Positions 3,292-12,945 of a stretch of DNA of 32,000 nucleotides are shown one piece after another. The notes beneath the pieces were generated by a model. That model worked only from the letters and a program-made list of their open reading frames with translations, was not told the DNA's origin and did no database searches. Numbering within the stretch: position 1 is the stretch's first letter; every line of letters starts with the position of its first letter. The position numbers were made by a program, and so were the translations under genes. The DNA is from Candidatus Jordarchaeales archaeon (lineage in GTDB: Archaea > Asgardarchaeota > Jordiarchaeia > Jordiarchaeales > Freyrarchaeaceae): the NCBI GenBank assembly GCA_038889235.1, contig JAWAHN010000002.1:344356-376355 (forward strand). The letters are read 5' to 3'.

Positions 3292-6200
3292 CTAGTTCGC
3301 CGAATCAAACACTTTTACGAGCTTCACTTCATGCCTGGGTGTCTGCACTACTTCAGATGGTAGTAGTTTATCTTTCACGTAGACTAATGCTTCCAGCGTG
3401 ACTATTGTGGTGTTAGGTACCTGCGGGGGCTTCCACGCCACACTTACCGTTTTCTCCTGCTGCTTAATCTCTCCGCTCCAAACTTTCCGTGTTTTCGTCA
3501 GAACCCTCGCAGTTAAGACAACCTTAATCGGTTGCGCCACTTTCTTCTTAACGTTGAATGCCAGTTTACTCTCTTTTCTCTCCTCCAGCATGGACGGGAG
3601 CTTGGTGAATGCGACCTTCACGAGAGGGCTGGTTGGCGGGCTTACCATGAACATTGGAGAAGTCTCCGTTAGCACGAAGGAGCCTTCCTGCGTTTTGAAC
3701 TGTAGCATGGCTTGCAAGTACGTCTTCTTTCCCGCAAGCCACGGTGGAATCTCAATTTTCCCGTGAACCTTCACTCCCTTCCTAGGTTTAAGCTCAAGGC
3801 TTAACTTCTCCTCAACCTCAACTTCCCCCTGAAGTGTAAAAAGGCGGACCACCCCTCTAGCTTTTACCTGCCGCTCAGCGGCATTCTCTGCTTCGAACTC
3901 ATACGCGACCTGACCACCAGCTTGCACATCCCTCACTCTAAGTGTTACCTCACTGATGGTAATCGGGGGACGAGGAGTTACATTAACCTCGACTTCTTCA
4001 CTATAAACCCTAGCTCCGTCTGCCTCCAAACTTATCTTTAACTTGTGCCTTCCCTTCTCCTCCCAGGCTTTGACTGTCAGTGGCAAAACATGCATCCCTT
4101 CGTCCACGACATACTCCTTCGACGTCACGGATCCGGCCGTCAACGAAACACTTAGCTTTACCGGCTTCATAACCCCTTCAACTCTCACTTTGAGCTTCAC
4201 CACAATGGTCGACGACGCTGCAACATTCTTCGGGCACTCGATGCCGGAAACCTTGACCGCCTTCTTAGGCGGAAGAGCGGTAACATGAACGACCCCCGTC
4301 TTACACTCCGCTAGAACCTCCTCACCATGAACTACACGGCACACGAAGGCGAAGCTCCCCTCCGTAACATCCTTGCCAACCTTAACCTTGCAGGACAGCC
4401 TCTTTGACTGCTTCACAACAAGCTCCCTATAATCCATTAGCCTCCTCTCCCTTCCCTCCAGGAAGATCTCAGCAAAGAAGGGGCCCGCAACGTCTGGGTT
4501 CAAGTTCACAACTTCGAAAACCGCCTTGCAAGTCTCACCCCACTTAACCACGTGCTTGGAAACACTACCGGAAACACTCAACCGAGGTCTAAGGGAAATA
4601 TGTGAGACGTCGATGGCTCTTGAAACATGGGCCGCAGCGACTGCTGTTTTGCTCTCTGCACGCTCCACCCTTCTACGTGAAGAGGGCTGAATACGAGTGA
4701 GCTTTGACTGCTTTGCTGTCTTCACAGCCCTCTCTGCCTTAGTTCTATCCTGAACGACAGGAGTTTTAGGCTTCGCAACGCTTACCTGTGCTTCTCGCCT
4801 AACTTGTGCCGTTGGCGGGGTAAGCCTGGTGACTACTATAACCTTTGGCTTAGCCTCTGCCTCTCTAATGGTTACAGCCTCTTTCTTCTTGGCCTCCGCT
4901 GTCTGTGCGACAAGTTCCTGTCTTGTTGCGGTGGTCTTTGTTTCCACTGCTGCTACACTTGGCCTTTCAACTCTCACCACCGGGGTTTTATATTCTGCCA
5001 CTGTTTCCCCCATGTAGAGTACTTGAAACCTAAGTGTGTACTCCCCCTCCTCGCCCGACGGAATAGGCACACTCACTACCGCAGGGATGTTTATCTTTTT
5101 CGTCAGAATAGGGGATATCTTTCCACCCTTTTCCGCTGTAACAACTAGTTTGTACTCCCCTCTAAACTCGGGAGGCCTACTCTCGACCTTCACCTTAAGC
5201 TCCCTAGTCTCCCCCACTCTGACGGTTTTAGGCGTGGTCCCAACAGTCACCTTCACGTTAGGTATCGCGGTGGCTTTAAACGTCCTAGTTTCTGCTTCGC
5301 AGCCCCCCACTCCCTCACCTTTCAAGGCAAACTTCAGACGGCACGTCTTAGTTCCATGGAACGCTTTGAGAGGGATTTTGAGGGGGAGCTGCGAGCTCGT
5401 GACAATAACAGTCTTACCTTTCCTCAAAAATATCTTCTTCACAGCCGTCTGGATCGTCTCGCTTTCATCGGCGAAGGTCACCTTCGCCACGAGCGTTGCC
5501 TGCGCATCCCCATCGCTGCTCACTTCAACAGTGAATGGTATGATCTCCTCTGCAACCACCATGGACGCTGTCGTCTCTGCTTTCATCGACACCTTGACCG
5601 CTAGCTTTGGTTTCTCTACAGATTCCACCCTTGCCTCTCCGAACGCTTCGATCAACGGGTCCCCTGGACCCGTGCAATACTTCCTAGTGATCTCCATCAA
5701 GCTGCGGGCTACGACCCCCATGTCTCCCCCCGAGCTACTGTAGAGGTATAGCAGGTAGTCTGCAGGGGAGCACGGGGGTTCAAGCTTATCTGAACCGTAG
5801 ACGGATACAAGGAAAGGCTTGAGGTAGTCTTGGAACCCAAGCTCATCTACTTCCTCCTCAACGTACTTTAGCATCCCCCGGACGGCTTCGAAAAGCTTAG
5901 AGTAGGGCTCTCCTGAAGGAGAGGTGTTGTAGAATGATGCCTCCTTCTCCTTGAGCCCCTTGTCCGGGAAAAACTTCCCCATTAAACCATAGAGTATCGC
6001 TTTTTCCCTGTTCTCAACTACCACGCTCGAGCTGACCCTTGGAACCCTAACTCCTTTACTTGCTAGTTTGACCGCTTTGAGCGCCAGCGCCTGTAGGAGA
6101 GCTACAAGCGCCAACCTTCTTGCTGCACTGAACTGTGAGTCGAAGACTCTGACCTCTATTGTTCCATAGTCTGTGAAGGGGAAAACGTCAACGTACCTGT

Positions 6201-9994: not shown

Positions 9995-10831
9995 TTAAAT
10001 GTCCTTCGTTTTAACCACCTTTATCCCCTGTGACTCGGCAAATCTCACTATTTTCGCCCTCTCCTCCCCTCTCATTCCTTTCCAGTCAAGCACGAAGAGG
10101 TCTACGCCACCGAGTGTTTTCTCGACAGCCTGCTGTAAGAGGCTTTCGTCCAGAACTCCGGTATAGTACTTTGACGCTATATGACCTACTCCTATGTCTG
10201 ACGAGATGTTTAGCTCGGTGAACTTTGGAGCGTAGTGTCCTCCCCCGAACCCCACAGCGTTGACACACTTTTCAGGTGGGCGAAACAGCAACTCTAAAAT
10301 CGACTCGGCAACTACTTCTCCAGCCACCCTATCCCTCCACTCCTTTTCGCTGCTCCCGATCTCTATAAACATGGAGGGAACGTCGACCGTCGGACCGTGA
10401 TGTGTTTGCTCCTGTGACACAGTGAATCCTTCCAACGAGTACTCTTCTCTTAATCTGGCAAGCACCTTCAACGCCGCCTTGACGTGCATGGGTGATGCCA
10501 TGCTAAGTTTCCTGGGCTCGCCTCCATACTCCGCCTTATCCCAGTTCCCTGAAACGTGGACGGACAGAGTTGCCATGTTAGCTAAGCTACTATGCCTGCT
10601 GGCGTAGATAACCAGACCTACGTCGAAGAACTTCTCTACGCCGCCACAATAGAGTATGTCTTCTTTGACGTGGACTAATGTAAGCTCGCATTTCCCAACG
10701 ACTCCACTCCAGCACGCTGCGCACCTCTCTGGCGGTCGCCGGCTTGCCAACCCGGCGCGCTCCACAAGGTGGTTGGAAATGTTCATTCCCGCAGGGTCAA
10801 GTATTGAAGCCACAACAAGCACACTTTCCAT
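9995..10831 (-). CDS. dtdA: Archaeal D-aminoacyl-tRNA deacylase (DTD2/GEK1 family)
   Basis: ASRHSS, LSVHVSGN, EQTHHGPT, FIEIGSSE and GFGGGHYAP motifs. Confidence 0.93.
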   Translation of the reverse strand: MESVLVVASILDPAGMNISNHLVERAGLASRRPPERCAACWSGVVGKCELTLVHVKEDILYCGGVEKFFDVGLVIYASRHSSLANMATLSVHVSGNWDKAEYGGEPRKLSMASPMHVKAALKVLARLREEYSLEGFTVSQEQTHHGPTVDVPSMFIEIGSSEKEWRDRVAGEVVAESILELLFRPPEKCVNAVGFGGGHYAPKFTELNISSDIGVGHIASKYYTGVLDESLLQQAVEKTLGGVDLFVLDWKGMRGEERAKIVRFAESQGIKVVKTKDI

Positions 10832-10925
10832 TCAAACCACGCATCCTAATCTCGGACTTACGCTTATATGACCTAGGTATTATGAAGAGTTTTACATGCG
10901 CCCCCTGTATGGTTAAAGGGAGAAG

Positions 10926-11981
10926 GTGTCCAACATGGAGAGCCTCATTAATGAGATTCTTCAAGAGAAAGATGATGTTAGTGAGATTTTAAACTACGTT
11001 CCTAAAATTCAAGTTTTCGGTGTTGGCGGTGCTGGGAATAACGCTATAAACAGGCTTGCCAGCGTAGGCGTTGAAGGCGTCGAGCTTATTGCAGTTAACA
11101 CAGACGCTCAAATACTGCTCGGCGTGAACGCAGACAAGAAGCTGCTAATAGGGAAGGAGACTACTAAGGGGCTTGGCGCCGGAAACGACCCAGACATCGG
11201 AGAAGCTGCAGCAAAGGAGAGCATCGAAGAGATAAGGGAGCTGATTTCAGGCGACCTGGTCTTTGTGACCTGCGGTCTAGGCGGAGGAACGGGAACTGGA
11301 GCATCCCCAATAATAGCTGAAGCTGCCAAGAAAACCGGAGCTCTGACGATTTCCGTGTGCACGCTCCCATTCATAGCTGAGGGTGCGAGGAGGTGGAGGA
11401 GCGCCTCGTCTGGTCTCAAGAAACTTGCGAGGGTTTCAGACACAATCATAGTTATACCGAACGAGAAACTCCTCGAGGTTGCCCCAAACCTTTCGCTGCT
11501 CCAAGCCTTCAAGCTGGCGGATGAAATACTTGTTAGGTGCGTGAAGGCTATATCTGAAATGATAACGAAGCCAGGCCTGGTCAACGTTGACCTTGCAAAC
11601 GTGAGGACAATAATCAAGAAGGGAGGTGCGTCACTCATAACTCTTGGCGAAGCCAGCGGGGAGAGGCGTGAAGAAAAAGCTGTAGATGACGCGCTCAACA
11701 ACCCGCTTGTCGACGTAGACATTTCGTCCGCAACTGGGCTGCTGGTCAACATAAGCGGGGACCAAGACCTCAAACTATACGAGGCGGAGGCCATAATAAG
11801 GTACGTGTCGGAGCGCATATCCCCCGATGGGGAGATAATATGGGGGGCAATAATAGACCCGACGCTGAAAGACAAGGTACGAGTGTCCCTCATAATAAGT
11901 GGCGTCACATACAGGCAGGTAGAACAAATACTTTCAGGTGAATACGTTACGCCGCTAGGATTACAGCTGGCTAAAATCTAG
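10926..11981 (+). CDS. ftsZ: Cell division protein FtsZ (FtsZ1-like gene context)
   Basis: GVGGAGNNAINR, AVNTDAQ, GLGAGNDP, GLGGGTGTG signature and PFIAEG; lies upstream of secE-nusG. The T7 loop reads NVDLAN. Confidence 0.97.
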   Translation: MSNMESLINEILQEKDDVSEILNYVPKIQVFGVGGAGNNAINRLASVGVEGVELIAVNTDAQILLGVNADKKLLIGKETTKGLGAGNDPDIGEAAAKESIEEIRELISGDLVFVTCGLGGGTGTGASPIIAEAAKKTGALTISVCTLPFIAEGARRWRSASSGLKKLARVSDTIIVIPNEKLLEVAPNLSLLQAFKLADEILVRCVKAISEMITKPGLVNVDLANVRTIIKKGGASLITLGEASGERREEKAVDDALNNPLVDVDISSATGLLVNISGDQDLKLYEAEAIIRYVSERISPDGEIIWGAIIDPTLKDKVRVSLIISGVTYRQVEQILSGEYVTPLGLQLAKI

Positions 11982-12167: not shown

Positions 12168-12449
12168 ATGCTTAAATCGCAGTCCGGCAAGCTAGCCGTG
12201 GTTTACGAGAAGATTAAAAGCGGGCGCTTAGTGCGAAAGGTAGCCGAGTCTAGGGTAGTTAAGGCCATTTCGCAGTCCAGAGTGGTTAGAAGAATTTGGA
12301 GAGTGTTTAAAGCGTCGAGGTATCCGACTAGGGAAGAAATATGGTTGCTTGTGAGGATATGCGTGGTAGGTATACTTTTGATAGGCGGCATAGCATTCGT
12401 CACAAAACTTCTATTATCTGTCTTGTTCTATCCTCAGCCCGTCACTTGA
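12168..12449 (+). CDS. secE: Preprotein translocase subunit SecE/Sec61-gamma with N-terminal extension
   Basis: RVFKASRYPTREEIW followed by a single TM helix with GILLIGGIAF; position between ftsZ and spt5. Confidence 0.9.
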   Translation: MLKSQSGKLAVVYEKIKSGRLVRKVAESRVVKAISQSRVVRRIWRVFKASRYPTREEIWLLVRICVVGILLIGGIAFVTKLLLSVLFYPQPVT

Positions 12450-12465: not shown

Positions 12466-12945
12466 GTGGTCTTATTGTCGAGTAGCGGAAACATTTTCGC
12501 CGTGAGAACAACAATTGGGCAAGAGAAAGCTGTAGCTGAGATCATAGAGAAGAGAGTTAAGGGGTCAAAGGACGTCGATGTAAAGGCCATCCTAGTCCCG
12601 GAGTCACTTAACGGTTACATCTTCATAGAGGCCGCAAGCCTAAAAGACGTGCTCACGGTCACCGCTGGAATACCGCACGTCAGAGGACAGGTTAGCGGGC
12701 GGGTGAAACTAGAAGACATAGAACAGTTCATAACAGTTAAGAGCCAAGCAAGCATGTTAAGCACCGGCGACATAGTCGAAGTGATTAGAGGACCATTCAA
12801 AGGAGAGAAGGCAACTATAGTTCGAGTGGACACCAGCAAGGATGAAGTAGTCCTGGAACTTTTAGAATCACCCAACCCGATCCCGATAAAGGTTCACGCA
12901 GACTACGTTAAACTCGTGGAGAGACGAGAGAAGGAAGAAGAGTAG
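12466..12945 (+). CDS. spt5: Transcription elongation factor Spt5/NusG
   Basis: IFAVRTTIGQEKAVA, GYIFIEA, IPHVRG (NGN domain) and KOW motif GDIVEVIRGPFKGEKA. Confidence 0.96.
   Translation: MVLLSSSGNIFAVRTTIGQEKAVAEIIEKRVKGSKDVDVKAILVPESLNGYIFIEAASLKDVLTVTAGIPHVRGQVSGRVKLEDIEQFITVKSQASMLSTGDIVEVIRGPFKGEKATIVRVDTSKDEVVLELLESPNPIPIKVHADYVKLVERREKEEE

Follow-up and report, generated by a model that had tools for sequence, protein, structure and literature searches.

An FtsZ1 orthologue of a Jordarchaeales archaeon with asparagine in place of the catalytic T7-loop aspartate

The 32,000-nucleotide stretch of DNA analysed here (the window) comes from an uncultured hot-spring archaeon of the Jordarchaeales, and carries a gene for FtsZ1, one of two FtsZ paralogues encoded by its genome (hereafter, G000). 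The closest proteins are labelled Candidatus Jordarchaeales, Jordarchaeum, and Freyarchaeota, all of them Asgard archaea. Aspartates of the FtsZ T7 (synergy) loop are textbook catalytic residues, and mutating the site of Escherichia coli D212 is the standard route to a GTPase-dead, non-functional FtsZ. At that site the window gene encodes Asn. The features of the gene that define the substitution are as follows.

10935..11981, forward strand: ftsZ1 coding sequence, 348 amino acids plus stop, assigned by TIGR00065, PF00091, PF12327, PDB structures of Methanocaldococcus jannaschii FtsZ1 (MjFtsZ1), and an AlphaFold2 (AF2) model
11280..11300, forward strand: tubulin signature GGGTGTG, residues 116–122, intact by sequence and alignment
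11583..11600, forward strand: T7 loop NVDLAN, residues 217–222, encoded by AAC GTT GAC CTT GCA AAC
11589..11591, forward strand: GAC, Asp219, the first T7 Asp (E. coli D209, Staphylococcus aureus D210), kept in an invariant alignment column
11598..11600, forward strand: AAC, Asn222, replacing the catalytic Asp (E. coli D212, S. aureus D213, M. jannaschii D238), placed by alignment and by the codons of relatives

Of the hydrolysis motif NxDxx[D/E] (Vaughan 2004, cited in PMC12583498), the loop retains N217 and D219 and departs from it at the final position. The alignment to MjFtsZ1 runs without gaps through H7, T7, and H8, setting NVDLAN over NVDFAD. The GTP-binding motifs GVGGAGNN, NTDAQ, GAGN-P, GGGTGTG, PF..EG..R, IPNEKL, and the H7 Asp are intact and lie in columns that are invariant or nearly so; the invariant ones include G29, G31–G34, N36, N55, T56, D57, Q59, G79, G81–G83, P86, P145, F146, E149, and N176. 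An earlier reading of the DNA, made from its letters and open reading frames (the sequence-only reading), had described Asn at the catalytic T7 position of an FtsZ with intact GTP-binding motifs, and the reading frame, the MjFtsZ1 alignment, and the family columns all bear this description out. Chance is of no concern, because the observation is of one defined residue in a homologous column.

The protein scores 395.3 bits against the TIGR00065 FtsZ equivalog (cut-off 295.2, open reading frame 10935–11981), 148 bits against PF00091, and 102 bits against PF12327. A PDB search matched the M. jannaschii FtsZ1 structures at E ~1e-105, with M. jannaschii ‘FtsZ homolog 1’ as the top match. The AF2 model (predicted local distance difference test [pLDDT] 87.4, predicted template modelling score [pTM] 0.86) has the predicted two-domain FtsZ fold, an N-terminal GTPase domain, H7, and, C-terminally, a GTPase-activating domain, and its best Foldseek matches are MjFtsZ 2vap/1w5a (template modelling score 0.86–0.91, root-mean-square deviation 1.7–2.3). 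Identity is 60% to ‘FtsZ 1’ of Pyrococcus abyssi and only 50% to the second FtsZ of its own genome; this closeness to characterised FtsZ1 proteins, taken with the distance from the second FtsZ, marks it as the FtsZ1 orthologue. By descent, then, the gene is an FtsZ1 orthologue, and by catalytic motif, given Asn222 and the unmatched NxDxx[D/E], it is not a canonical FtsZ. The M. jannaschii (PDB 1FSZ, 1W58–1W5B, 2VAP) and Pyrococcus FtsZ1 proteins share with it 52–60% identity, the fold, the GTP-binding loops, and the gap-free T7 alignment. The M. jannaschii loop is NVDFAD, with the catalytic D238. In the window protein the loop is NVDLAN, the C-terminal tail is much shorter, and the H5 Arg is preceded by Arg in place of Val or Lys.

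The start of the gene and its neighbours are these.

10925..10928, forward strand: Shine–Dalgarno-like GGTG, 6 nt upstream of the ATG and including the GTG (10926) that had been taken as the start of the open reading frame
9995..10831, reverse strand: D-aminoacyl-tRNA deacylase gene (dtd), PF04414, the divergent upstream neighbour
12168..12449, forward strand: secE / Sec61-gamma-like gene, with a weak PF00584 match (19.1 bits, under the cut-off), a C-terminal transmembrane helix, and a position kept in relatives
12466..12945, forward strand: spt5/nusG, PF03439 and PF00467

The GTG at 10926 lies inside the Shine–Dalgarno-like GGTG and homologues begin MES..., which puts the true start at the ATG of position 10935 and makes the substituted residue N222. 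The sequence-only reading placed the AAC rightly at 11598–11600; its codon number, 225, was counted from the GTG and is shifted by three. The order dtd-ftsZ1-secE-like-spt5-aroE is kept in two other genomes of the same genus (G002 and G003) and in one of the sister genus (G004), in agreement with the earlier placement at the canonical ftsZ1 locus, and the window gene is the FtsZ1 orthologue of a dtd-ftsZ1-secE-spt5 locus. As a separate observation on dtd, tblastn matches the final 32 residues of the D-aminoacyl-tRNA deacylase a second time in G003, just past the full gene (L092 on G003:C31, ~5957–6052); this short match may be a small duplicated gene fragment.

The Asn is present in genomes assembled independently of G000. 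In the codon-level analysis, which covered G000, G002, G003, and G004, G000 and G003 both have AAC at the site, G002 has GAC, and G004 has GAT. G003 is independent of G000 and belongs to its genus, and the FtsZ1 proteins of the two are 84% identical. Asn occurs in nine distinct sequences (P0001, P0002, P0122, P0123, P0003, P0124, P0125, P0126, and P0005) that stem from ~30 independently assembled contigs (NCBI, JGI, ENA, and Logan; a 15-billion-protein collection). A sequencing or assembly error, or a decaying gene, is suggested by the single-base difference from the consensus codon, and the sequence-only reading had named an error as grounds for dropping its claim. The AAC of G003, the nine sequences from four sources, a ratio of nonsynonymous to synonymous substitution (dN/dS) of 0.05, and a frame intact everywhere exclude the error and leave this explanation as a whole with next to no probability.

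Relatives carry both residues. Asp is found in P0004 (a Jordarchaeum sp. metagenome-assembled genome), in P0006, and in the Freyrarchaeum cluster (P0007/P0008 and members); all Jordarchaeum-type sequences read NVDLAD, and the other Asgard and euryarchaeal FtsZ1 proteins examined read NLDFAD. Of 400 Asgard species genomes, two (G000 and G003) matched a degenerate DNA pattern for the Asn loop. The sensitivity of the pattern is grounded in a near-identical protein-level pattern, which fitted 26 of 26 loops in the relatives' loci, and in looser scans. Among the nearest 90%-cluster representatives, Asp occupies the site in 116 of 120 and Asn in four, all from the genus of the window. These surveys indicate that Asn is confined to part of one Jordarchaeales genus. 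The expectation that relatives would share the change thus holds for some species of the genus and fails for one species of it, for the sister genus, and for everything else. The loop of P. abyssi FtsZ1 (P0029) reads NLDFND, with the fifth-position Ala changed to Asn and the catalytic Asp kept; this form is seen in 2 of the 120 nearest representatives.

Farther afield, Asp occupies the site in 141 of 149 diverse 50%-cluster representatives; Asn is found there in two (P0199 and P0277), His in one (P0219), and Ala in one (P0197). These bacterial loops read NLDFAN / NVDFAN for Asn, NVDFSH for His, and NVDFAA for Ala. The His form, in the P0219 / P0286 cluster named as Anaerolineaceae FtsZ, is carried on ~200 contigs. 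The E. coli D212 site is therefore nearly, not absolutely, invariant in nature. The bacterial P0199, P0277, P0219 Anaerolineaceae cluster, and P0197 resemble the window protein in having a natural non-acidic residue at this site, but belong to distant lineages with 42–46% identity to it. At the top of the 50%-cluster representatives by score stand tandem double-FtsZ proteins, P0136, P0137, and P0138 (744–840 amino acids) and P0178 (731 amino acids), each with two full matched stretches; in P0178 the T7 loops of both halves are degenerate.

A second residue, immediately before the conserved H5 Arg, follows the T7 residue through the family.

11388..11393, forward strand: AGG AGG, Arg152-Arg153; R153 corresponds to M. 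jannaschii R169 and S. aureus R143, the water-bridged partner of the T7 Asp

Every Asp-type relative has Lys at residue 152, and every Asn-type sequence has Arg. All Asn sequences have also lost T232 (to Ala or Met); P0004 keeps Lys and Thr. In maximum-likelihood trees of the family, P0004 (Asp) lies within the Asn sequences and P0005 (Asn) outside them, whether or not the T7 column is included, which implies at least two changes. A single Asn clade is not rejected by the approximately unbiased (AU) test (p 0.18 and 0.14). The informative sites conflict (39 / 25 / 24 at codon level; 12 / 14 / 3 in the flanking genes), and G000 has the longest branch in every gene compared. The derived characters shared by the Asn sequences, R152, N222, and loss of T232, speak for one origin, P0004 having branched off earlier. 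Gain plus reversal is not established by these data, and one gain and a gain with reversal both stand. A local recombination patch around the codon was considered and finds no support in the informative sites, which do not cluster; the site-by-site comparison of P0004 is mixed.

The rest of the protein is under strong constraint. Between the two Asn genomes, G000 and G003, dN/dS is 0.05–0.06 at a near-saturated dS of 1.6–1.9; against the Asp genome G002 it is 0.06–0.08. The reading frame is open in every genome compared. The dN/dS of 0.05 and the intact frame everywhere rule out a pseudogene or relaxed selection, and by its strong purifying selection the Asn-type FtsZ1 is a working protein and not a decaying one. 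From G000, FtsZ1 and FtsZ2 identities are 84 vs 90% and 70 vs 86%; between two Asp-type Jordarchaeum genomes they are 72 vs 85.5%. As these examples show, FtsZ1 evolves faster than FtsZ2 throughout the Jordarchaeia, and the faster rate is not tied to Asn. We picture a single transition, GAC to AAC, that would have swapped the second T7 Asp for Asn within one genus, with the Asn then fixed in at least three species-level lineages and retained, the remainder of the protein being under strong purifying selection all the while.

The tails of the protein are also distinctive.

10935..10991, forward strand: N-terminal tail, a predicted short amphipathic helix (MESLINEILQE...), hydrophobic moment 0.52; AF2 helices 2–9 and 12–19 at low pLDDT
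11913..11978, forward strand: C-terminal tail ending LGLQLAKI (family consensus PELQLxKI), from the family alignment

The C-terminal tail extends ~22 residues past the globular core and closes with a family peptide, (P)ELQL(A/T/S)K(I/L). Set against the SepF-binding C-terminal peptide of FtsZ proteins (GID-type, or DLGIPxL), its LGLQLAKI end aligns with, yet differs from, the DLGIP(R/K)L that ends Thor- and Loki-type FtsZ1 proteins and the FtsZ2 of G000 itself. Across the class, the loop of Jordarchaeial FtsZ1 carries Leu instead of Phe (NVDLAx), and its C-terminal peptide is either reduced (PELQLxKI, in the family of the window) or absent (Jordarchaeum). The sequence-only reading was right that the tail is short; the tail is neither featureless nor peculiar to this protein, given the conserved ELQLxKI end and the fact that a short tail is normal for Asgard FtsZ1. 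Among the closest known proteins is OdinFtsZ1 of Candidatus Odinarchaeum (PDB 9V7V; PMC12583498), which is likewise an Asgard FtsZ1, 54% identical in the fold alignment, with a conserved N-terminal amphipathic segment. OdinFtsZ1 has a short C-terminal tail without SepF binding, contacts the membrane through its N-terminal amphipathic helix, and occurs alongside an FtsZ2 with a SepF-binding tail (PMC12583498). OdinFtsZ1 differs in keeping NxDxx[D/E] (PMC12583498), which the window FtsZ1 has lost. The moderately amphipathic N-terminus MESLINEILQE fits an OdinFtsZ1-type membrane arrangement, and its predicted helix is a possible direct membrane-binding element of the same kind.

The genome in which this protein works is 2.14 Mb and 95% complete. 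Its second FtsZ, FtsZ2, lies on another contig and is a protein of 384 amino acids with an intact G-box, the loop NLDYAD, and a long tail ending DDLGIPRL. Its other division genes comprise one for SepF, two to three of the Snf7/ESCRT-III type, and one for a Vps4-like ATPase. The SepF of Odinarchaeota and Haloferax binds FtsZ2 but does not bind FtsZ1 (PMC12583498). The sequence-only reading had raised the prospect of a changed division system; this is unsupported, as FtsZ2, SepF, ESCRT-III, and Vps4 are all there, as is usual for Asgard archaea, and FtsZ2 is equally intact in Asp-type genomes.

What the substitution would do can be judged from FtsZ proteins studied elsewhere. In high-resolution structures of S. 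aureus filaments, the precatalytic water is held by D210 and D213 of the T7 loop of the upper subunit together with G72 of the lower one; water B1 bridges D213 to R143 in H5 of the lower subunit, an Arg equivalent to M. jannaschii R169, and the position of the R143 charge is critical for hydrolysis (PMC8936486). The D212N mutant of E. coli has a defective GTPase and stable filaments (PMC3573117, PMC12754632), and D212G has <1% GTPase activity and static rings (PMC7320174). By analogy, in the archaeal protein the Asp from the subunit above would help to hold the attacking water and would be water-bridged to the H5 Arg of the subunit below, here R153. Asn at residue 222 could still hydrogen bond, with the charge lost. 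The FtsZ1–FtsZ1 interface would then be expected to hydrolyse GTP much more slowly, giving longer-lived FtsZ1 polymers with slow turnover. The GTPase-dependent dynamics of the ring would come from FtsZ2, which is catalytically intact and presumably tethered to SepF by its DLGIPRL tail. The R152 that sits beside R153 in every carrier may re-tune the same inter-subunit site.

We accordingly prefer, at a probability of roughly 55%, the explanation that the Asn-type FtsZ1 is a functional, selected variant with a slowed GTPase and stable polymers that leaves dynamics to FtsZ2. What the sequences show is the substitution, its distribution, the selection on the gene, and the inventory of paralogues and division genes; slow hydrolysis, a reasonable expectation from the mutant enzymes, is inferred, as are stable filaments and a division of labour with FtsZ2. 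The most likely state of the protein, by the same analogy, would be a strongly slowed GTPase and slower turnover made tolerable by the local background, in which K152R, perhaps with the loss of T232, is a candidate compensation for Asn222. The non-treadmilling scaffold of the sequence-only reading goes further and is an extrapolation, because S. aureus D213N suppresses assembly and a Haloferax volcanii FtsZ1 mutant, D250A, fails to complement.

Several observations pull the other way from this preferred explanation. S. aureus D213N, besides suppressing assembly in vitro, gives no filament stabilisation (PMC8936486). H. volcanii FtsZ1 D250A, a change of a T7-loop Asp whose equivalence to N222 is unaligned, is not only non-complementing but also dominant-negative (bioRxiv 10.1101/2020.06.04.133736). 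Since D250A is harmful, plain loss of GTPase should be harmful too, which argues for compensation or retained activity. Other natural FtsZs are non-acidic at the E. coli D212 site (Asn in P0199 and P0277, His in Anaerolineaceae, Ala in P0197). Finally, the best tree puts the Asp-type P0004 within the Asn sequences; should this placement be correct, the site switches back and forth and may tolerate either residue.

These points lead to the strongest competitor, a serious one that we hold to be clearly less probable than slowed hydrolysis: that the change is tolerated or compensated. Together with D219, R153, K152R, and a high growth temperature, Asn222 would still position the water, GTPase activity would be near normal, and Asp and Asn would be nearly neutral alternatives. 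The two changes required by the maximum-likelihood trees (a gain and a reversal, or parallel gains) suggest such a flippable site, although the AU test (p 0.14–0.18) leaves toggling not established and a single origin standing. FtsZ2 and the other division genes are the same in Asn and Asp genomes, and Asn, His, and Ala variants occur naturally elsewhere. In the S. aureus structures, moreover, D213 ‘essentially preserves its position’ and gives the chemical environment, and it is D210 that swings to position the water (PMC8936486). On the opposite side, every FtsZ in which Asp to Asn has been tested at this site loses its function, that of E. coli (PMC3573117, PMC12754632) as well as that of S. 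aureus (PMC8936486), and Ala for a T7-loop Asp (D250A) likewise kills the function of H. volcanii FtsZ1 (bioRxiv 10.1101/2020.06.04.133736). The near-universality of Asp otherwise, in 116 of 120 and 141 of 149 representatives, also speaks against neutrality.

The laboratory mutants E. coli D212N and D212G and S. aureus D213N alter the same position as Asn222, and D212N and D213N make the same residue change. These mutants and H. volcanii FtsZ1 D250A are engineered alleles, non-functional or dominant-negative (PMC3573117, PMC12754632, PMC7320174, PMC8936486, bioRxiv 10.1101/2020.06.04.133736), whereas the window allele is natural, fixed, under purifying selection, and accompanied by K152R. The substitution usually made to kill FtsZ is here fixed in nature under strong purifying selection. 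A literature search on Asgard FtsZ and the T7 loop found a natural T7 Asp-to-Asn FtsZ in no title or abstract, nor in the available portions of PMC12583498, PMC13394414, and bioRxiv 10.1101/2020.06.04.133736. The searches found no paper on FtsZ in Jordarchaeia and no publication on the P0199, P0277, P0219, and P0197 variants. The natural Asn/Asp pair of close orthologues, with an Asp sister species ~10–15% divergent, provides a matched comparison. It bears on how much GTP turnover an archaeal FtsZ1 needs and on what compensates for loss of the Asp, and also on how two Asgard FtsZ paralogues share their work, a subject with one biochemical study so far (PMC12583498). The significance is tempered by the narrow clade and by the similar variants in some bacteria.

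The presence of two paralogues, one with and one without the catalytic Asp, raises the idea of mixed FtsZ1/FtsZ2 filaments in which FtsZ1 is the partner without catalysis: with its T7 loop dead, it would make a non-hydrolysing interface on any subunit on which it sits, as K254 of beta-tubulin does for the GTP of alpha-tubulin. Precedent comes from tubulin and from K248 of the Asgard AtubA, in which the acidic T7 residue is naturally lost in one paralogue of a pair (PMC13394414), and in Haloferax FtsZ1 influences the localisation of FtsZ2 (bioRxiv 10.1101/2020.06.04.133736). We regard mixed filaments as unlikely. In FtsZ2 the GTP pocket, the T7 loop, and the tail are all preserved, equally so in Asp-type relatives; ftsZ1 and ftsZ2 are unlinked, on different contigs; and OdinFtsZ1 and OdinFtsZ2 form distinct homopolymers (PMC12583498). 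Tubulin and AtubA are co-encoded obligate heterodimer partners (PMC13394414), whereas the FtsZ2 that partners the window FtsZ1 lacks complementary specialisation: in the comparison of Asn-type with Asp-type genomes, no complementary degeneration of FtsZ2 was seen, motifs and tail being alike. Slightly more doubtful still is the stricter proposal of a natural ‘GTPase-off’ subunit that acts only with FtsZ2, capping it or alternating with it so that one interface never hydrolyses. If true, the alpha/beta-tubulin principle would have been invented anew, independently and recently, in the archaeal phylum closest to eukaryotes, and through the Asp-type sister species such a subunit could be compared directly with the ancestral state.

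The two to three Snf7 genes and the Vps4-like ATPase allow one further account, in which division has shifted to ESCRT-III/Vps4 and FtsZ1 has been repurposed as a static cytoskeletal element. We consider it very improbable: these genes are general to Asgard archaea, and no difference in them was shown between the lineages with Asn and those with Asp; both FtsZ2 and SepF are intact; and FtsZ1 is strongly constrained along its whole length, polymer-interface motifs included, as a division protein would be expected to be. Beside ftsZ2 on contig C1 of G000, directly downstream and convergent to it, lies a gene for a MinD/ParA-type P-loop ATPase (PF01656, PF10609; L001:2626–3396), which may be a positioning factor.

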